A DNA stretch of 64,000 nt from Candidatus Dormiibacterota bacterium (GTDB taxonomy: Bacteria > Chloroflexota > Dormibacteria > Aeolococcales > Bog-877). Numbering within the stretch: the stretch's first letter is position 1; each line of letters opens with the position of its first letter. Where the stretch lies: assembly GCA_027313505.1 (NCBI GenBank), contig DAHVDN010000012.1, positions 1,267 to 65,266 on the forward strand. Reading direction: 5' to 3'. The notes beneath the pieces were generated by a model, which was not told where the DNA came from, did no database searches, and saw nothing but the letters and a program-made list of their open reading frames with translations. Positions 18,377 to 27,696 of the stretch are shown in pieces. Position numbers and translations under genes: made by a program.

Positions 18377-20497
18377 CTAAGCGGTTCTGCGGAAGGCGGC
18401 CGCCGGCTGGGGGTGAGCGAACAGGTATCCCTGTCCGAGGGGTACTCCGAGTTCCACCAGTCGGGCGCGTTCCGCTTCGGTCTCGACCCCCTCCGCGATC
18501 AGGGTGCAGTCGCCGCGCTCAGCGAAGTGCTGGATTCCTGCAACCATCGCCTCCCGGACGGCGTCCCCGGACATGCCCCGTACCAGGGAGATGTCCAGCT
18601 TTACGAAGTCGGGCCGGAGCTCCAGAATGTGCCGGAGACTGGCATATCCGGCTCCGGCGTCATCCACGGCCAACCGGGTGTTGGGTCCCATGTGACGGAC
18701 TGCCTGGCGCACCTGCTCGTAGTCCTCGATCAGGCGGTGCTCGGTGATCTCCACCACCACCTCGTATCGCCGTTGTCGCAGAGTGCGGGAGATCTGAGCC
18801 TGGGCGCCCACTAGAACCTGGGGCGAGAGGTTTAACGAGAGGAATTGATTGGGCTCCAAAAGCTGGCCCCCCGCTCGCAGCGAGCGCTTCAGAGTTGCCA
18901 GCTCGAGCTGCTCCAGAAGATCGTGTTCGGCGGCGATGGCGAACGCCCGGTCCGGGGTGAGGTCTCCCGAAAATCGCGTGAGTGCCTCGTAGCCGACCAC
19001 CCGCCTCGAGCGGATCTCAACAATCGGTTGGAAGACGGGGTGAAAGCTGCCCTCCTCGAGCGCTCTGAGGACCACCTCCGCCCCTCCATCGACGCTGGTT
19101 GGCGACGCCAGCAACGGTCCAAGGCTGGTGGCGGCCGCGATGGCGAAGTCAGCAAGGGACGGCAGCATCGCGATCAGGTGCTGGGAGGCGGTATCCGGAT
19201 CCGGATCTTCTGTGGCGGTTATCAGGAGTCCGAGAAGGCGGTTACCCTGCCTGATCGGCGCGTATGCGAAGGCGTGCAGACCGCAGAGTGAACAGGCCGT
19301 CCAGTAGTCTCGGATGTCGGGGTCATCGGTCCGTCGCGCAGCTTCGGCGCAGCGCTCGATCCACGGTCCTGATAGGGCACGCGCCCGCAGGGCGCGGGTT
19401 CGCTCGTCGGGCAGTCCACGATAGTTGACCCCGGGATAACCAAGGGGGGGGTGGGGGTAGCTGGCAACCGGGATCGCCGGACCCGAACCGGCCAGTGAGA
19501 CGATCTGAGCGATCGCGGTTCCGCGCAGTCGAACCAGTTCTCGACAGATGCGCTGAGCGCCCTCGTTCCCTGTTTCCCTCGGGTCCACGAAGGTCGCGAC
19601 CTCCCGGATCACCCGTCGCTCTGAGAGCTCCATCATGAGCAGTTGATGATCTCCCGAGTGTAGGCGGGCGGCCAGCGCGACCATGGTGATCAGCAGGCCC
19701 AACCCGGTCTCGAGCCACCCCAGTCGGCTGCCCAGCGAAGGCCCAGAGCCACCCACCAGGGCCAGCAATAGACCGAGGTTTGCAGCCCCAGCTCCTGAGA
19801 GAACCCAGCGCTCGATGGGTCGGAGCGCACCCCACCTGGTCCAGGTCAGGCTGATCAGCACTCCGCCGAAAATCAGCGTCACCCATCCCAGCGTGGCTCC
19901 GCCGCCCGCGAGCTTGGACAGCTGCTCCGGCGCCACTCCACTACCTGCGATCCCGCTACCGACGACCGCCCCCGCCAGAAGCATGGCGGCGAAGATGCTC
20001 ACAACTCCCGCATAGGAGAGGTGGGTCCATCGCCCCTGGCTGGAGACCCGCCTCCATACCTCCCCGGGAGTCGCCAAGGAGAGGGTGACACCCAGGGCAA
20101 AAACCACGTGCCACAGGAGTCGACCGGAGACATCGCCCGCCGTGGTCTGCAGGATCTGCAGCCGGCCCCCCTCGGCAGCCCAGATGATACCTGCCGCCAT
20201 CAACGCGAGAAAGGTTCCCGAGAGCCCCAGGAGCCTGAGGTTGGTCCCACTCAGCATCTGCTCCTCGAACAGCAGCAGGGCGATGAGGCCGCAGCCAGTG
20301 GCCGCTGCGCTGAGGTAGATGACCCGCCCCCCGGTGGCTCCCGAAGAGCTCAATCGGGCCAGGGGCAACATCGCGAGCACCAGCAGCGCCGTGGCGAGCG
20401 CCGCGCGCGCGGCGGGGTCCTTAGGTAGCCGCAATCGAGGGAGCCGACGGCTCTGACTCCATTCGACCGGCGCGGCCCGCGACGTCACGCCGGACAC
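18377..20497 (-). CDS. Membrane-anchored EAL phosphodiesterase (multi-TM sensor, GAF-like region, EAL)
   Basis: FQPIV, GYEALTRF, NLSP, EITEH, VDDAGAGY, KLD, AEGVE and QGYLF all intact; about 8 N-terminal hydrophobic helices. Confidence 0.9.
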   Translation of the reverse strand: MSGVTSRAAPVEWSQSRRLPRLRLPKDPAARAALATALLVLAMLPLARLSSSGATGGRVIYLSAAATGCGLIALLLFEEQMLSGTNLRLLGLSGTFLALMAAGIIWAAEGGRLQILQTTAGDVSGRLLWHVVFALGVTLSLATPGEVWRRVSSQGRWTHLSYAGVVSIFAAMLLAGAVVGSGIAGSGVAPEQLSKLAGGGATLGWVTLIFGGVLISLTWTRWGALRPIERWVLSGAGAANLGLLLALVGGSGPSLGSRLGWLETGLGLLITMVALAARLHSGDHQLLMMELSERRVIREVATFVDPRETGNEGAQRICRELVRLRGTAIAQIVSLAGSGPAIPVASYPHPPLGYPGVNYRGLPDERTRALRARALSGPWIERCAEAARRTDDPDIRDYWTACSLCGLHAFAYAPIRQGNRLLGLLITATEDPDPDTASQHLIAMLPSLADFAIAAATSLGPLLASPTSVDGGAEVVLRALEEGSFHPVFQPIVEIRSRRVVGYEALTRFSGDLTPDRAFAIAAEHDLLEQLELATLKRSLRAGGQLLEPNQFLSLNLSPQVLVGAQAQISRTLRQRRYEVVVEITEHRLIEDYEQVRQAVRHMGPNTRLAVDDAGAGYASLRHILELRPDFVKLDISLVRGMSGDAVREAMVAGIQHFAERGDCTLIAEGVETEAERARLVELGVPLGQGYLFAHPQPAAAFRRTA

Positions 20498-20601: not shown

Positions 20602-21996
20602 TCAGCTGACCCCAGGTGAGAGCTCCATTCCAAGGACGCTGTGTGTCACCTCTCTCACAACCGACCTCACCCGCTCAGTGACTTCGACGGCCGCCTCTTC
20701 TCGGAGCCGAAGGCGGATTGATGGACCCTGCACGGCGACGAGCGCGGCGGTATCCGGCAGGCGAGCCAGGAGCTGGCCGAGGATGTGCGTCGTGAGCCGG
20801 GCTCCGGCATCGCTGAGACTCTGGTCGCGACCGCTCAAGGATGTTGGGTCGCCCCAGGGAAGTGGGTCCGGGAATCGCCGACGGTCGTTCAGCCATTCCC
20901 ACGCCGTACGGAAGCTCTTGAGTCCCCCCAGACTCTCAGGTATCGCTTCCGGTCGATCCAGGGCCGAGCCCCAGGCCGGCTCGTGATGGTCTGGCCGGGG
21001 CCTCCTGGACCCGAGTGCCCTGAGCGATATCACCGGTTCTCCAGCCCTCTTCACAGGAAGGGGCTGCCCTCCCTCTCCAACCGCCGCGAGAGCTTCCCGC
21101 AGTTCTCCATCGCCGCTCCAGTAGGCTACGAGTGCCAGGGTCGGGGGAGGCAGGGAGATGTCGATCAGCGCCTGCATCTTGCGGTCCTGAGATTCCAACC
21201 TGTTGACGGGTCTCGGCTCGGCGCACGCCAAGAGACCCGCCGGATGGGGCAGGTTCAGCTCATACCCGGCCATTGACAACTTGCCCATCAGGAGTAGGTC
21301 GGACCGATAGGGCAGTTCCCGGCGACGGGCGGGCTGGGCCGACGCCCAGTGTCCCATCGCTCTGCCCAGCTGAAGGAGCTTCCACCGGCCATCGTCATCG
21401 GGGGCGTCGCGACCGGGGTCGCGCTCCTCCGCCGGCTCGACCAGGCCAACCATGGTGGTGAGGCGATGCCGTTCCACGAAGGTCAGCCCCCTAAGGGCTT
21501 CGCGCACGTCGCGATGCGGGGGCAGGTCGCCTATGAGCAGCGGCGGGGCCGCACCATCTTCAACCATTCGTGAGTACCCGGCCAGGGAGAGGTCCCAACC
21601 CCCGCCCGGGACTGCGATGTGGAGGTCGCCCGGTCCTGCTCGAAGTAGAACCGCTGCCCTCGGCCCCCACGGCCAGGCCGGGACCCGAGTCGGCCTCGCG
21701 GGGCTTGTCGGACGCCCCTCCGGTCGCTCGTAGGTGGAACGGTCGTAAGCGGCTCGTAGCTCGGGGGTCGCCACCAACGCCCAGGCGGTCTGGAGCTGGC
21801 TGAAGAGCGCTGTGGCACGGGCCGGATCGAGTCGCTGGCTACCGCTCCGATGGACCTGGACGTCCGGATGAAGCTCTCGGGCCCGCGCCCTGTACCGCCG
21901 CCTCAGCTCCTGCCAGCTGGCGGTTCGCTCCGCTCCCAACAGCTGGTAAACATCTACCGGCCGGGACGAGGCCCTCATCGGCACGATGGGATCCAT
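20602..21996 (-). CDS. J-domain protein with a C-terminal region resembling a degenerate family-A DNA polymerase
   Basis: DVYQLLG...RRRYRARARELHPD...RAAYD J-domain; the C-terminus aligns by eye to PolA motifs (see findings). Confidence 0.75.
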   Translation of the reverse strand: MDPIVPMRASSRPVDVYQLLGAERTASWQELRRRYRARARELHPDVQVHRSGSQRLDPARATALFSQLQTAWALVATPELRAAYDRSTYERPEGRPTSPARPTRVPAWPWGPRAAVLLRAGPGDLHIAVPGGGWDLSLAGYSRMVEDGAAPPLLIGDLPPHRDVREALRGLTFVERHRLTTMVGLVEPAEERDPGRDAPDDDGRWKLLQLGRAMGHWASAQPARRRELPYRSDLLLMGKLSMAGYELNLPHPAGLLACAEPRPVNRLESQDRKMQALIDISLPPPTLALVAYWSGDGELREALAAVGEGGQPLPVKRAGEPVISLRALGSRRPRPDHHEPAWGSALDRPEAIPESLGGLKSFRTAWEWLNDRRRFPDPLPWGDPTSLSGRDQSLSDAGARLTTHILGQLLARLPDTAALVAVQGPSIRLRLREEAAVEVTERVRSVVREVTHSVLGMELSPGVS

Positions 21997-22024
21997 CTGA
22001 TCGAGCCACCCCTCGCTTGCCTGG

Positions 22025-22780
22025 TCACAGGTCGAACGGGTCCTGGAAGAAACCGGGCATGTGGGCGGAGAGCCAGTCGTTGAAGATGGTGAAGTGGTTG
22101 AAGGCAACCAGAACCCCCATCAGCAGAACCACCGCACCTCCAATGGTGGAGATCAACTGCTGATGTGCGCCCAGCGCCCTGAGCAGCGGTCGAATCCGGT
22201 CCAGCAAGAGGGCTGCCAAAAGAAACGGGAGCCCTAGCCCGATGCAGTAGGCGGTCATCAGGTAGAGCCCCTGCCCGGTGGTTCCCGAGTTCAACCCTGA
22301 GGTGAGCACCGCGCCCAGGACCGGCCCGATGCAGGGTGACCAGCCTGCCGCAAGGCCAAGGCCAAGGAGGAAGCCAGCACCGAATCCTTTGTGCCGGCGG
22401 TTCACCGGGAGCACTCTCAGCTCCCGTGAGAGCCAGCCGATATGGATGAGGCCCATAAGGTTGAGACCGAGCAGTATGACCATGACCCCCAGGACCGGCG
22501 TGACCACTGTCCTCCACGGCGAAAGGAGGCGGTCCAGCGCATAGAAGAAGGCGATGCTGAATACCGCAAGGCCGACAACGAAACCCACCGATCCGCGGAT
22601 GACCCGCCACCGCGGGCCGGCGCGCAAAGACCGTCCGCCAGGGGAATTCACCCCAGGCTGAGCTGCCTCGTGGCCCAGAAAGGCGAGGTAGGCAGGGACC
22701 AGCGGGAGGACGCAGGGGGAGAGGAAGGAAGCAGCTCCAGCCGCGGCGGCCAGGGGGAGGGTGACATCGCTCAGCTGCAC
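22025..22780 (-). CDS. ccdA: Cytochrome c biogenesis protein CcdA (DsbD transmembrane domain)
   Basis: SFLSPCVLPLVPAY and GWSPCIGPVLG redox cysteine motifs. Confidence 0.92.
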   Translation of the reverse strand: MQLSDVTLPLAAAAGAASFLSPCVLPLVPAYLAFLGHEAAQPGVNSPGGRSLRAGPRWRVIRGSVGFVVGLAVFSIAFFYALDRLLSPWRTVVTPVLGVMVILLGLNLMGLIHIGWLSRELRVLPVNRRHKGFGAGFLLGLGLAAGWSPCIGPVLGAVLTSGLNSGTTGQGLYLMTAYCIGLGLPFLLAALLLDRIRPLLRALGAHQQLISTIGGAVVLLMGVLVAFNHFTIFNDWLSAHMPGFFQDPFDL

Positions 22781-22864
22781 GGTTTCCGACCCTTCGGGCG
22801 GTCGCCATCGCGACCGCGACCTGATTCGCATTGCTTGGGCAAAGCTGGGAACCAAAGGGCGTGC

Positions 22865-24688
22865 TCAGGCGTCGCCGCCGGCAGCCCCTAGCAGTGCCAT
22901 CCTCTGCAGCTCCTGATCGGCCAGCGCCGGGTCCAACTTTCGGAAGAGGGCCCGAGGCGCGGTGAGAGGTTGGCCCGGCTCAAGCCGGGTCGGGACCCAG
23001 GATCCGACCGCCCTAGTCCAATCGGTTACCAGCACCCGATGGGGGTCGCCATCCCCCAGATCGACCTCCTCCAGCACCGGTAGGGGAGCCAGCAGCCCCT
23101 CCTGGCCGAGCATTTCGTGGAGGGCTTGGGAAGAGAAAGGGAGGAACGGGGTGAACAGCACCTTGAGGTCGGAAATGCACTGCAGTGCTATGAACAGAAC
23201 GGTTCCTGCGCGCTCACGATCCACCTTCACGAGCCGCCAGGGCTCCATCTCACCCAGGTACTGATTGACCTTGGCGGCCAGTGCCATCACTTCAGCCAGA
23301 GCGCTCTTGAAGTGGGCCGTGCCCAAAAGGTCGCCCACGTGGTCGAAACCGGACTCGACCGACTGCAGCAGCCCGGCGTCGGCAACTCCAATCTGACCAG
23401 GGGTGGGGACAGCTCTGAAGTGCCTGGCGGCGAGGGTCAGAGTGCGCTGGACCAGGTTGCCCCAGGTCGCCACCAGCTCGTCGTTGTTGCGGCGGATGAA
23501 TTCCGCCCAGGTGAAGTCGGTGTCCTGAGTCTCCGGGCCACCGGCTGTCAGGTAGTACCTGAGGGGGTCTGGGTCGTAGCGTAGGAGGAAGTCACGGACC
23601 TCGATCACCACTCCGCGGCTACTCGAGAACTTCTGCCCCTCCTGAGTCAGGAATTCGCTGCTGACCACGTTCTCCGGCAAGACCAGGTGGGGTGCGCCCT
23701 CGCCGCCCCCCAGTTCGCCCCCACCTCCGTACCCCATCAGGATGCTGGGCCAGATCACCGAGTGGAAGACGATGTTGTCCTTGCCCATGAAGTAGAAGTG
23801 GCGGGACTCGGGGTCCTGCCACCAATCTCGCCACGCCTCTGGTTGCCCACGGAGCCGAGCCCATTCGATGCTCGCGGATAGATAACCGATGACGGCGTCA
23901 AACCACACGTAGATGCGTTTGTCGTCCCGCTCTTCGAACTCGGGAACAGGTACGTGAATTCCCCAGTCTATGTCTCGGGTCACGGCCCTCGGGCGCAGCT
24001 CGCCAAGGAGGTTGGAGGAGAAGGCGAGGACATTGCTGCGCCAGTCACTCTTCTGTTCGAGCCAGTCAGACAGCGCGCTGGCAAAAGCGGGTAGGTCCAG
24101 GAAGAAGTGCTCCGACTCGCGGAAGACCGGCGGTGCTCCGTCGATCTTCGATCGGGGATCGATAAGGTCCTGGGGGTCCAGCATCCGGCCGCAGTTGTCG
24201 CACTGGTCGCCGCGGGCCGAAGTGTAGCCGCAATGTGGGCAGGTGCCCTCTATGTAGCGGTCCGGCAGGGTTCGCCCAGTCTTTTCGGAGAATGCCCCGA
24301 GCTGAGTCCTACGAATGAGGAAGCCCTTCTCATAGAGGGTGCGGAAGAGGTCCTGAACAACCAACTGGTGGTTTTTGGTGGTGGTTCTGGTGAACAGGTC
24401 GTAGCTCAGCCCGAGCCTTCGCAGGTCCTCCGTGATCACCTGGCTGTAGCGGTCGGCGATCTCGCGCGGACCGATCCCCTCGCGGTCGGCCGCCACCAGA
24501 ATCGGGGTTCCGTGCTCATCGGTCCCGCTCACCATGAGGACCTTGGCCCCACGCAGGCGCTGGAATCGTGCGAAGACGTCGGAAGGCACGCCGAAGCCCG
24601 CGACGTGTCCGATGTGGCGAGGCCCGCTGGCGTACGGCCAGGCCACGGCGACCAGGATGTGTTCGGAGGACGGTTGCTTTGAACTCAA
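22865..24688 (-). CDS. metG: Methionine--tRNA ligase (no C-terminal dimerisation domain)
   Basis: [27 protein letters not shown] knuckle, [19 protein letters not shown]. The ORF-track start overlaps the divergent gene and was trimmed. Confidence 0.97.
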
Positions 24689-24740
24689 GACCCGAACGAT
24701 GGTAGTCGGTGTGGTCACCCGAAGGTGGAACAATGCCCAG

Positions 24741-25814
24741 GTGCCTTTGAGACCGCGGGTGCTGCTGGTGATCGCGGACAGCTCGCGCACGGGTGGCCCC
24801 GAGCACGTTTTGACATTGGCCCGAGAGATCCAGAGATCCGGCTGGCAGGCTGCTGTGGTCTGCCCTGAGGGCGATCTGCGGGACCGATGCCGCGAGGCGG
24901 GGCTGGACAGCTGGCCGGTGTCCATGAGCGGCCGGTCTCTGGTCGCCGCCCCGGTCCGCCTGCGGCAGCTTATCCGTCGATACCACGCGGATGTGATCCA
25001 CAGTCACGGACTCAGGGCTGGAGGGGTCGTGCGCCGTTCGCGGATCGCTTCCCCTTGGGTGCAGACCCATCATCTGGATGGATGGTTCACGACCGGGAGA
25101 CCTCGCTTCGCGCTCCACCGCCACGAGATGAAAGCGCAGGTAGCCAGGGCCAACCTCCAGATCGCCGTCTCTCAGTCGGTGGCCGATTTTCTCAGCGGAG
25201 AGGCCGGAGTCAGGAAGGCGCTGATTCGTGTCGTCCCCAACGGGATAGAACCTCTGGAGCGACATCGCCTTTTTCGGGGTGGGACGACCGTCGTGGGGGT
25301 GCTGGCCAGTTTGGTGTCGAGCAAAGGTGTCGATCTGGCGGTCATGGCCCTGGCCACCCCTCAAGGCCGGGGCTTGAAGCTGCTGGTGGGTGGAACCGGG
25401 CCCGAGCTCGCCAACCTGGTGGACCTGGCCGAGCGTTTGGGGGTGGCTGGTCGGACCAGTTTTCTGGGCCGAGTCACCGACCGGCAGGATTTCTTCGATC
25501 GCTGCGACGTGGTCTGGGTGCCGAGCCGAGCGGAGCCCTTCGGGCTGGTCGCCTGCGAGGCTATGAGCGCCGGGGTACCAGTTGTGGCCAGCAGGGTGGG
25601 GGGTCTGCCAGAAATCCTCGATGCCCCTTCGGCTGGTGCCTTGGTCGCTCCCGCAAACCCCGCAGCTCTGGCCAGCGTTACGGTCGCCCTGTTGAGTGAT
25701 GGGGAGCGCTACTCCAGGCTATCGGCCGCCGGGGCTGAACGGGTCAGGCAGCGCTTCACGGCGGCCCGAATGGCGGCCTTGACTCGGGGGGTGTATCGAG
25801 AGTTACTCGACTGA
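24741..25814 (+). CDS. Glycosyltransferase family 4
   Basis: [48 protein letters not shown]. Confidence 0.92.
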
Positions 25815-25831
25815 CCGACACCCGGACGGCG

Positions 25832-26431
25832 CTACTTTTTGGAGGCCTGGTAGTAGGGGTTGGCACCCTGGGCGTGGTCGGTGGTGTCCACGACGTCGTG
25901 AAGCTCGGCAAACCGCTCCAGGATGGTTGTTCGAACCCCCTGTGAGAGGGTTACCTCGGCCAGTCCGCACCCCTGGCATCCGCCACCCATCTGGACATAG
26001 GCGACTCCGTCGGCGATGTCCAGGAGACCGATGTACCCACCGTGCGCTGCGACAGCGGGATTGATCTCCTGGTCCAGCAGCTCTTGAACTGCCTGAGCCA
26101 GGGGGTCGGCATCGGGGTTGTAGCTGGTCTCCAGCGACAGTGCTCCAGAGACGACATCGGCGTCGACCGTGGCGCCGATCACGTGACGGGAGATCACCTT
26201 GGGGGCCACGAATGAGATGTCCTCCGACCCGCGAACCAGGATCTCGTCATCCTTCAGGTCACCACTCTCAACAAGGGCGAAGGTGAAGCTGAGCCGCTCA
26301 CCGACCAGACCTGCCGGAGTCACCGAGATCCAACCCTCGGGATGTCCCTGACGTTGGCGGAACGCGCGTATCCTCTCCGCTCCGCGCTCGGTGAGGTTGA
26401 GCTCAGGGACCGCTGGCAGCGTGGTGTCCAT
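25832..26431 (-). CDS. nfuA: NfuA-type Fe-S carrier (degenerate A-type domain + NifU C-terminal domain)
   Basis: EINPAVAAHGG, MGGGCQGC, VVDTTDHAQGANPYY. Confidence 0.9.
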   Translation of the reverse strand: MDTTLPAVPELNLTERGAERIRAFRQRQGHPEGWISVTPAGLVGERLSFTFALVESGDLKDDEILVRGSEDISFVAPKVISRHVIGATVDADVVSGALSLETSYNPDADPLAQAVQELLDQEINPAVAAHGGYIGLLDIADGVAYVQMGGGCQGCGLAEVTLSQGVRTTILERFAELHDVVDTTDHAQGANPYYQASKK

Positions 26432-26448
26432 GAGCATAGTCTGACGGC

Positions 26449-27696
26449 ATGGCTCGTCGAGTGTTGTTCGTGCTCCCAACTGGCACCTACCGGGCAGGTG
26501 CATTCCTCAGCGCCGCCGCGAAGCTGCAGTTGGAGGTGGTGGTGGCCACCGAGGAGCCGTCGACTTTGGGCTGGAAGCACCCGGAGTCGGAGGTGGTCGT
26601 AGACCTCGATCGCCCCGACAATGTGGCCGAGGCCGTGGCTCACCTCAACCAGGGGGAGCGGCTTGAGGCGGTGGTGGCGGTGGACGAGGCCTCGGTCCTG
26701 GTGGCCGCTCACCTAGGGGAAGCACTCGGCCTCCGGGGAAACTCGGTAGCGGCAGCTCGGGCCACCCGTGACAAGGCTCTGTTGCGGTCCAGGCTGCTCC
26801 GAGCTGGGGTCCCTCAGCCGGAGTGGGCGCTATGGGAAGGGGAGACACCCCCTCCTTGGCGCACCTTCCCGGCGGTGTTGAAGCCTTTGGACCAGGCCGC
26901 TAGCCGCGGAGTCATCCGTATCGATCGACCATCTGACCTTCCCTCTGCCGCCCGGCGCATCCGAAAACTCTTGTCAAAAGATCCACGATGCCCGCCAAGC
27001 AATGGCCTCCACCAGTACCCACTTCTCCTGGAGGCCTTCGTTCCCGGTCCCGAGGTCGCCGCGGAGGCTTTGGTTCGCAACGGCGAAATAATCCCCCTGG
27101 CAATCTATGACAAGCCGGAACCGCTCGACGGGCCGTACTTCGAAGAGACCATCTACACGGTGCCGACCGCACTTGCACCCGAGGCCGCTGACCAGGTGTG
27201 GGGCACCCTTCAGGCGGCGATAACGGCGATTGGCCTGATGTGCGGTCCGGTGCACGCCGAACTGCGGCTCGGGGCCGCGATTCCGCGAGTCATAGATCTG
27301 GCATCTCGCGCCATCGGCGGCCACTGCTCGGCGGTGCTCCACTTTGCCGCCGGCCTTTCGCTTGAGGAACTCATCCTGCGCAACGCGGTTGGAGATGCAC
27401 TTCCGGACACCTCCCTGGTGAAGGGGGGGTTCGGGGTGATGATGCTCCCCGTGCCCCGAACCGGTTGGCTGAGGGGTGTTGTCGGTCGGGATGAGGTGCT
27501 GTCGCTTCCAGGAGTCGAGGGGCTGGAGATCGCCGTTCCGGTAGGCGGATGGGTCGCCTCCCCGCCGGAGGGAAACAGGTATCTCGGATTCCTGTTTGCC
27601 AAAGGGAAGGATGGTGGCGACGCCGCGGGGCTCCTGAAGCAGGCCGAGGCGAAGCTGACGTTTGTCATCGACGAGGAGGCACCGGGGGACGGCTGA
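26449..27696 (+). CDS. ATP-grasp domain protein
   Basis: TRDKALLR, PAVLKPLDQAASRGVIR, EAFVPGPE, YDKPEPLDGPYFEETIY, GPVHAELR. Confidence 0.88.
   Translation: MARRVLFVLPTGTYRAGAFLSAAAKLQLEVVVATEEPSTLGWKHPESEVVVDLDRPDNVAEAVAHLNQGERLEAVVAVDEASVLVAAHLGEALGLRGNSVAAARATRDKALLRSRLLRAGVPQPEWALWEGETPPPWRTFPAVLKPLDQAASRGVIRIDRPSDLPSAARRIRKLLSKDPRCPPSNGLHQYPLLLEAFVPGPEVAAEALVRNGEIIPLAIYDKPEPLDGPYFEETIYTVPTALAPEAADQVWGTLQAAITAIGLMCGPVHAELRLGAAIPRVIDLASRAIGGHCSAVLHFAAGLSLEELILRNAVGDALPDTSLVKGGFGVMMLPVPRTGWLRGVVGRDEVLSLPGVEGLEIAVPVGGWVASPPEGNRYLGFLFAKGKDGGDAAGLLKQAEAKLTFVIDEEAPGDG

Follow-up and report, generated by a model that had tools for sequence, protein, structure and literature searches.

J-domain proteins decide the site of Hsp70 action, and DNA polymerases that have lost catalysis are known to survive as adaptors in the Y family (ImuB) and in the B family. 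Here we report on a gene (P0001) on the minus strand of a 64,000-nucleotide stretch of DNA, hereafter the window, from Candidatus Dormiibacterota bacterium (Chloroflexota; Dormibacteria; Aeolococcales; Bog-877; GenBank assembly GCA_027313505.1, contig DAHVDN010000012.1, positions 1,267 to 65,266). Its product of 464 amino acids (aa), the J/pseudo-Klenow protein, joins an N-terminal J-domain to a module of about 365 aa that is highly likely to be a pseudo-enzyme of the PolA type, i.e. related to DNA polymerase I (Pol I).

Related systems

The targeting modules of J-proteins set where, or on what, Hsp70 acts (PMC8215388). CbpA of E. coli (a DNA-binding class B protein), HscB, DjlA and yeast Mdj1 each join a J-domain carrying the His-Pro-Asp (HPD) tripeptide to a separate targeting module, Mdj1 being found on the mitochondrial nucleoid (PMC3750215). 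The J/pseudo-Klenow protein is of this general kind, whereas none of the four is built on a polymerase-derived module. In ImuB, a polymerase fold survives in the role of a non-catalytic adaptor after losing the catalytic carboxylates (PMC12926913, PMC6511836). The present protein likewise appears to keep a polymerase fold without its carboxylates; unlike it, ImuB belongs to the Y family, is widespread, has no J-domain and has known partners, whereas the module reported here is A-like and occurs in one family. Within family A, the PolA2/APEX and UDG-PolA lineages retain for structure a domain that has been inactivated (PMC12926913, PMC10201439). A dead domain is also retained here, with the difference that PolA2/APEX and UDG-PolA keep an active polymerase and have a dead exonuclease or UDG domain only, whereas in the present module the polymerase site is very probably dead too. 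Like the large fragment of family-A Pol I (Klenow, KlenTaq), the module has its palm and fingers behind a domain in the exonuclease position, and as in Taq this latter domain is small and without the ExoI carboxylates; the exonuclease domain of Taq is inactive (PMC10201439). Unlike Klenow and KlenTaq, it spans 365 aa rather than ~540, has fingers shorter by ~50 residues, is unmatched by the Pfam DNA_pol_A family, seems to have no thumb, and shows G-x-R in place of the HDE of motif C and mostly R, L or S in place of the Asp of motif A. A further difference from Pol I is that a J-domain replaces the 5' nuclease.

A 2026 survey of bacterial polymerases distinguishes PolA1, PolA1-like, PolA2/APEX and PolA3 and marks dead exonuclease domains as well as dead Y-family homologs; its main text contains no occurrence of DnaJ and describes no dead A-family polymerase domain (PMC12926913). 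The main text of the 2023 reclassification of PolA has no occurrence of DnaJ, J-domain or chaperone and likewise describes no dead polymerase site (PMC10201439), and that of a survey of 280,000 J-protein sequences has none of 'polymerase' (PMC10410713), although the supplements of the three surveys may list other architectures. Full-text literature searches returned no relevant work on a J-domain joined to DNA polymerase I or to a pseudoenzyme, on family A DNA polymerases that are inactive or carry a J domain, or on DnaJ of Dormibacterota. A first-pass annotation of the window, made from the sequence alone, had stated that no J-domain/PolA fusion was known to its author, and the main texts of these polymerase and J-protein surveys agree with it. 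The architecture combines two known kinds of protein, class C J-proteins and dead-polymerase adaptors, and is restricted to one uncultured family.

Predicted fold of the non-J part

A structural model was built by AlphaFold2, without templates, from alignment A1, which holds 33 sequences of one family and underlies the column counts given below. The mean predicted local distance difference test (pLDDT) score was 87.0 and the predicted template modelling score 0.76, with pLDDT ≥90 at 286 of 464 residues. In the model and its structure matches, the part following the J-domain forms a domain at the exonuclease position and then palm and fingers, in the topology of Pol I. Foldseek against the PDB gave 86 matches at E≤0.001 (best 3.1e-6), and all those listed were family-A DNA polymerases (Taq, Bst, T7, apicoplast Pol and Aquifex Pol); the BFVD viral structure library gave 49 at the same threshold, those named being phage PolA. 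In two different aligners PolA alone took the lead, exceeding every other fold by 4-5 Z units in alignments that span ~300 residues and two domains. The structural alignments open at model residue 98-114, on the first exonuclease-domain strand of the Taq, Klenow, Bst and T7 polymerases (T7 residue 1 on model residue 114, Klenow 326 on 98 and Taq 294 on 101), and end on the last element of both chains (model residue 464 on Taq 822 of 832). The family-A polymerase fold proposed by the first-pass annotation is thus recovered, with PolA on top when AlphaFold and Foldseek are combined; its assignment of the likeness to the last ~260 aa was too narrow, as the alignments begin already at residue 98-114, and it did not note the domain in the exonuclease position, the apparent lack of a thumb or the restriction to one bacterial family. 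Together, these matches suggest that the module would descend from a PolA gene.

Comparison of the module by hhalign with a PolA profile, a MAFFT alignment of 27 Chloroflexota PolA sequences drawn from 29 loci (L093 and L108 were excluded at <800 aa, and L105, from an unpublished genome, had been excluded earlier), gave, unsupervised, one local alignment of 229 columns. It pairs MGKLS..NLP with TGRLSS..NLQNIP, ISLPPPTLALVAYWSGD with DYSQIELRVLAHLSxD, and VQGPSIRL with QVHDELVF, i.e. the three pairings that had previously been read by eye as Pol I motifs in order, and adds W-K-L..R-A with A-K-L-K-S-T-Y and G389/R400 with L-x-G-R-R-R / E-R.

Several results weigh against a Pol I origin and a function derived from it, and the acidic column 279, the apparent lack of a thumb and the uninformative neighbours described further below belong with them. 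The hhalign E value was 0.41 (0.26 under another column rule), which is not significant, 12 of 100 column-shuffled queries reached at least the real score, and the reversed query scored higher. Since the score is not above chance, the motif matches, although they agree with the fold, are not independent proof of homology, so that the by-eye reading holds as to the pairings and their order and not as to their significance. The ~365 aa after the J-domain were left unnamed by every sequence method used (Pfam, NCBIfam, phmmer and profiles against the PDB). DNA_pol_A (PF00476) was matched at E≤10 in none of 33 family members, in which Pfam gave only stray matches in single members (e.g. MdcG, 0.0044). 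The A1 profile against PDB sequences found J-domain chains only, with no polymerase among the 60 matches listed, and the A3 profile (the C-terminal module alone, 15 sequences) had no PDB match at E≤10. With residues 105-464, phmmer against 1.84 billion representatives gave 12 matches at E≤0.001, of which 8 are the family or its fragments and the other 4 are long proteins aligned in 6-13 stretches, probably by composition; no link to PolA was found in this set. Foldseek TM-scores are low (0.26-0.41), with a VIA root-mean-square deviation of 4-5 Å, and when the exonuclease-like part is searched alone its fold matches are unspecific. The evidence for a PolA likeness therefore consists of a single predicted model and the fold matches made with it; of the two kinds of support that might have been lacking altogether, a PolA-like profile match is indeed absent and a structural one is present.

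These points raise the alternative that the PolA likeness is a prediction artefact or the product of convergence, residues 100-464 being lineage-specific and AlphaFold2 being drawn to a familiar fold. The insignificant sequence and profile similarity, the shallow and narrow alignment behind the model, the low TM-scores and the unspecific exonuclease-like part would all fit this explanation, which nevertheless appears improbable given the high template-free confidence, the lead of PolA in both aligners over two domains in Pol I order, the coincidence of the chain ends of model and Taq, and an unsupervised hhalign path that is collinear with the predicted motif A and motif C strands.

As a separate observation, the nearest neighbours of residues 100-464 in the ESM Atlas were three all-viral clusters of ~400-aa hypothetical proteins, at sub-threshold scores of 0.77-0.78; one of them carries PF00476 on 11% of its members. 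This lead lies below the level of trust and hints that compact PolA-like proteins exist in phages.

Anatomy of the module and loss of the active sites

The features of the protein and the two genes upstream of it are listed in Table 1.

Table 1. Features of the J/pseudo-Klenow gene and of its upstream neighbours (window coordinates; residues of the 464-aa protein).
Feature	Coordinates	Strand	Remarks
Whole gene P0001, J-domain/pseudo-Klenow protein, 464 aa	20602..21996	-	Intact open reading frame, stop codon included
J-domain, residues 14-90	21727..21957	-	9-residue family-specific insertion after HPD
HPD tripeptide, H43 P44 D45	21862..21870	-	Invariant in 33/33 homologs; translation checked
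Basic Pro/Arg-rich linker, residues 91-112	21661..21726	-	Net charge between +2 and +9 (33 homologs)
Small RNase H-like domain at the position of the Pol I 3'-5' exonuclease, residues 113-184 (predicted)	21445..21660	-	ExoI DxE absent
Acidic disordered loop at the thumb position, residues 185-203 (19 residues)	21388..21444	-	pLDDT ~52 (191-200)
Palm and reduced fingers of family-A polymerase fold, residues 204-464 (predicted)	20605..21387	-	
Palm N-terminal half, residues 204-300			GRLS..NLPHP block and motif A-like strand and helix
MG[RK]LS..G..LNLPHPAGL block	21232..21288	-	Counterpart of PolA TGRLSS..PNLQNIP; pairing by hhalign
Motif A-like strand and helix, residues 276-299	21100..21171	-	Strand 276-281, helix 285-294; catalytic Asp position 281 is Ser
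Shortened fingers-like region, residues 301-378	20863..21096	-	R-A-L-x-G-[RK]-R-x-R-x-D remnant at motif B position
Palm C-terminal half, residues 379-432			LPWG..G.D..RL block and motif C-like hairpin
LPWG..S..G.D..L.DA..RL block, residues 379-401	20794..20862	-	hhalign pairing with PolA GYV.T..GRRR / ER.A.N, not significant
Motif C-like beta hairpin, residues 418-431	20704..20745	-	Strands 418-423 and 426-431; HDE replaced by G-P-S (family G-x-R)
C-terminal helix and last strand, residues 433-464			
ccdA/DsbD-type membrane gene, upstream, co-oriented	22025..22855	-	PF13386, E 1.5e-8; homolog upstream in 13/13 loci
metG, upstream, co-oriented	22865..24925	-	PF09334, E 2.9e-144; upstream in 13/13 loci

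The linker, in which P102 and W108 are nearly invariant, rises in pLDDT from 54 (residues 91-100) to 84 (101-110) and leads into a domain whose element order in the model, b-b-(b)-a-b-a-b-a, is RNase H-like. The D-x-E of ExoI is absent from its strand 1 in the 33 homologs, where columns 118-121 are L29/E3/R1, R29/Q2/H2, A/S/T/M and G/A, respectively. D157 (30 D, 3 E) and E175 (33/33) are conserved in this domain and may be remnants of ExoII and ExoIII.

The following loop falls below pLDDT 50 at residues 195-197. Its net charge stays between -5 and -7 throughout the 33 homologs, yet none of its columns is invariant, so that its composition is kept and its sequence is not. In the hhalign alignment, module residue ~209 corresponds to position 336 in the Klenow-equivalent part (640 residues) of the PolA encoded by the same genome, and the post-thumb palm helix is preceded by ~110 residues here versus ~335 (exonuclease and thumb) in PolA. 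From these lengths, rather than from a superposition, and from the disordered loop, it is suggested that the thumb has been deleted and that the element with which Pol I grips duplex DNA has gone with it. The loss of the thumb and the presence of an acidic loop in its place would argue against a Pol I-like grip on duplex DNA and against the proposal of the first-pass annotation that the module binds primer-template-like nucleic acid.

In the palm, whose net charge averages +4 (range -3 to +11 among the homologs), invariant residues cluster in blocks. Those of the GRLS..NLPHP block are L240, S241, G244, P250, H251, P252 and G254, position 239 being R in 26, K in 2 and Q in 5 sequences, and those of the LPWG block are L379, P380, W381, G389, L394, R400 and L401; D296 is also invariant. 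The fingers-like region between them is the least conserved part, with a mean pairwise identity of 0.38 and none of 78 columns invariant. Only ~75 residues separate the motif A helix from LPWG, and residues 301-330 have the lowest pLDDT of the module (61-76), in keeping with the earlier view that the fingers and motif B are shortened. Of 33 sequences, 32 have R326, R332, R334 and D336, and the motif B remnant, as paired by hhalign in this short, low-confidence region, is without the aromatic pair.

Pol I chemistry depends on both carboxylates of motifs A and C as well as on the ExoI pair. At the motif C turn, G424 is found in 31 of 33 homologs, position 425 is P, A, S, T, N, W or G, R426 is found in 20 of 33, and the consensus of columns 423-426 is [RQ]-G-x-R; none of the 33 homologs has D or E at any of these four columns. 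Column 281, aligned with the catalytic Asp of motif A, reads R16 L7 E3 S2 V2 W1 I1 D1 and is thus acidic in 4 of 33. The four acidic residues are confined to the most divergent members, P0061-P0064 (loci L015-L017), three of which also carry E at column 118 of exonuclease strand 1, and the module may have kept an earlier, less degenerate form in these members. Two residues upstream, column 279 reads D17 E13 Q2 A1, i.e. it is acidic in 30 of 33, and given a 2-residue insertion in the P-P-P loop it may be the true counterpart of the motif A Asp, in which case one carboxylate would survive. With the motif C and ExoI carboxylates gone and the motif A Asp mostly so, the module is very probably dead both as a polymerase and as an exonuclease. 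The dead site noted in the first-pass annotation is hence extended to the family as regards motif C and qualified as regards motif A.

A module that is still an enzyme, i.e. a nucleotidyl transferase or nuclease with a rearranged active site, would have D/E279, E260 and D296 in the palm and H126, D157, H161 and E175 in the RNase H-like domain as candidate residues, all of them invariant or nearly so. D157 lies behind strand 4 and E175 at the end of strand 5, positions at which RNase H-like enzymes often have catalytic carboxylates. Such an activity is nonetheless very unlikely, as the motif C carboxylate is missing throughout, with Arg predominating, the acidic pair of strand 1 is missing in 30 of 33 homologs (column 118 being E in the other 3), the O-helix remnant is without the K/Y/F pattern, and no enzyme family profile matches.

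An intact gene conserved in one family

The minus-strand open frame runs from 20602 to 22107, corresponding to 501 aa when counted from a TTG, and is free of frameshifts and internal stops. A start at TTG 22107 would overlap ccdA, whereas ATG 21996 lies 28 bp past the ccdA stop, is preceded by a GAGG-like stretch and falls within a few residues of the N-termini of the 33 aligned homologs. The intact 464-aa frame given by the first-pass annotation was confirmed.

A search of 5.8 billion proteins recovered, at E≤0.001, 64 members of the family and a single fungal J-protein. Full length (433-477 aa) together with PF00226 (DnaJ) was found in 59 of the 64, the other 5 being shorter, and the homologs were named at source 'J domain-containing protein', 'DnaJ domain-containing protein', 'hypothetical protein' or 'curved DNA-binding protein CbpA'. 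Four entries of 294-352 aa without PF00226 were considered as J-less forms and rejected, since they open inside conserved strands and are therefore truncated gene calls. The 33-sequence alignment, with sequences 38-74% identical, has 63 invariant columns, of which 39 lie outside the J-domain, and the mean pairwise identity is 0.69 in the J-domain, 0.65 in the exonuclease-like part and 0.58 in the palm. Frames of 440-475 aa without stops are found in 14 related loci and 10 related genomes.

A scan of 185,579 species genomes confirmed 111 stretches, of which 80 were kept. Among these 80, 14 were full-length (L004-L017), 8 of them labelled Dormibacteria or Dormiibacterota, and in the remaining 66 the match was limited to residues ~1-131. 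Among the many matches in Actinomycetota and Acidimicrobiia, the three loci examined (L024, L037 and L073) are canonical DnaJ genes beside hrcA that match by the J-domain only. The module is present in all 10 other genomes of its own Dormibacteria family, from 3 genera (8 of 8 without G198 and G225, which are unpublished). The protein query found it in none of the genomes of four sister families (0/27, 0/36, 0/36 and 0/11), and a profile query of these 110 genomes gave the same result save for one chance-level match (E 0.006 over 82 positions). At E≤1e-20, the whole-protein profile had no match in a sample of 150 other genomes from across the phylum, in which the own family was represented by G000 only. 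Among the genomes sampled, the gene is confined to one uncultured family of Dormibacteria, a soil lineage.

A decaying or chimeric gene, in which a J-domain had become joined by accident to a rotting polA fragment, has nothing in its favour and is refuted by this conservation: the frames are intact in the related loci and genomes, the 59 full-length homologs share one length range, invariant columns persist between widely diverged sequences, and the short entries are truncated calls. We consider its probability negligible.

J-domain, Hsp70 partner and proposed function

Pfam on the whole protein at E≤10 reports PF00226 as the sole family, at residues 15-85 (E 5.6e-11, 42.8 bits against a cut-off of 27.8 bits), and PF00226 was detected in all 33 aligned members; the intact, HPD-bearing J-domain recognised earlier is thereby upheld. 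The NCBIfam models for DnaJ, CbpA and DjlA match within residues ~15-94 only and score far under their cut-offs. In phmmer against PDB sequences, 51 chains were matched, all through residues 1-103, with Thermus DnaJ2 on top (1.6e-6); the alignment to this protein reveals the insertion behind the HPD, in which R50, R55 and L56 are also invariant. DnaJ_C and DnaJ_CXXCXGXG were not found at E≤10 in the whole protein, which is on its domain content a class C (type III) J-domain protein, i.e. one without the G/F region, the zinc finger and the DnaJ C-terminal domains.

A J-domain and DnaK form a textbook pair. The assembly, which is 92% complete, contains one Hsp70 gene (DnaK, 865 bits), which would be the partner, and three J-domain genes, namely two of canonical DnaJ length (open frames of 384 and 394 aa) and the gene reported here. 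It also contains a normal polA (DNA_pol_A, 520.9 bits), the only match to PF00476 in the genome scan.

The target of a class C J-protein is determined by its non-J body, and the J-domain activates Hsp70 at that target (PMC8215388). We put at roughly 55% the probability that the present protein is a class C co-chaperone whose body, a dead and thumbless 'mini-Klenow', docks on a nucleic-acid end or on a replication or repair protein and aims DnaK there. According to this proposal, the J-domain would stand at the position of the Pol I 5' nuclease, and the pseudo-polymerase module would dock on a specific target, most likely through the palm cleft and most likely on a nucleic-acid end or on a protein of DNA replication or repair. 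The HPD of the J-domain would trigger ATP hydrolysis in the single DnaK of the genome, and DnaK would then clamp a protein at the docking site, leading to its remodelling or disassembly. Nucleic acid or the replication and repair machinery as the target is, taken by itself, a tentative assignment, somewhat short of even. It is favoured by the mildly basic palm and by the pairing of the invariant blocks with segments of Pol I that presumably contact primer and template in the palm.

The same architecture could have been exapted purely as a protein-binding scaffold that hands one non-DNA client to DnaK, much as HscB hands IscU to Hsp70. The apparent loss of the thumb and the acidic loop in its place make such a pure protein adaptor a serious rival, and the degenerate fingers and O-helix region, an average palm charge of just +4 and the fact that most class C J-proteins are protein adaptors (PMC8215388) point the same way. 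On the other hand, the GRLS..NLP and LPWG..G.D..RL blocks pair with DNA-contacting motifs of Pol I, albeit in an hhalign pairing without statistical support, and no candidate client is encoded nearby. We regard this alternative as rather unlikely, at about half the weight of a co-chaperone aimed at a nucleic-acid end or a replication or repair protein. A fuller version of the latter proposal is itself doubtful, though slightly less so than the protein scaffold. In it, polA would have been duplicated, and one copy would have shed the 5' nuclease, the thumb and the active sites and acquired a J-domain; the palm cleft would recognise a 3' end, gapped DNA or a protein that usually encounters Pol I at such a site; DnaK would strip or remodel stalled replication or repair proteins; and the acidic loop would serve as a DNA mimic gating the cleft.

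Gene neighbourhood

The order metG-ccdA-J gene on the same strand was found in 13 of 13 loci having upstream DNA; ccdA directly adjoins the J gene in 10 of these and lies 0.7-2.2 kb off in 3 divergent loci. No promoter-like or terminator-like site was found between metG, ccdA and the J gene, and the three genes therefore likely share one transcript. The first-pass annotation had described the gene as chromosomal, maintained and co-oriented behind metG-ccdA and had proposed homologs as a check on fusion and synteny; the synteny is conserved in the 13 loci and the fusion in the related loci and the 10 family genomes, and a decayed or frameshifted chimera is ruled out. In the sister family, CcdA paralogs obscure the corresponding position. 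A major facilitator superfamily (MFS) transporter gene lies downstream in 13 of 14 loci. The neighbours metG, ccdA, MFS and EAL give no hint of function, and looking for a functionally linked neighbour yielded only thiol-redox (AhpC/TSA) genes beside ccdA in the divergent clade.

In that clade, a gene for an AhpC/TSA redoxin of the thioredoxin fold lies between ccdA and the J gene (L015, 5287-5928, plus strand; L016, 5337-5984, minus strand). Redoxins of the AhpC/TSA type are the usual partners of CcdA-type reductant exporters, and this gene is probably unrelated to the J protein. Between the J gene and the MFS gene of the window, 18377-20497 (minus strand) encodes a protein of 706 aa whose N-terminal half is hydrophobic and which carries an EAL domain (E 2.6e-45) and a weak GAF_2 match (25.6 bits, under the cut-off); with a full-length ortholog in 1 of 14 loci (L008), it looks like a lineage-specific insertion. 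On the other side, a NifU-like protein is encoded at 25832-26503 (minus strand; PF01106, E 2.1e-18), NifU being matched in 6 related loci, and the conserved block reads NifU - GT4 (opposite strand) - metG - ccdA - J gene. The longest frames of metG (22865-24925, minus strand) and of the GT4 glycosyltransferase gene (24534-25814, plus strand) overlap by ~390 bp (24534-24925). As the Pfam matches begin at about residue 87-90 in both, the real starts are probably further in, and the two genes probably diverge from a shared intergenic region.

Significance

Profile methods are blind to the module, and its probable ancestry is revealed by structure prediction only. If the assignment is true, the J/pseudo-Klenow protein would be the first example both of a family-A DNA polymerase that has lost catalysis and been retained as a non-enzymatic module and of a J-domain protein with a polymerase as its scaffold. 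It would show how far the polymerase fold can shrink under selection, i.e. without thumb, with short fingers and without carboxylates, and a Pol I-derived aiming device on a J-protein would newly tie the chaperone system to DNA transactions.

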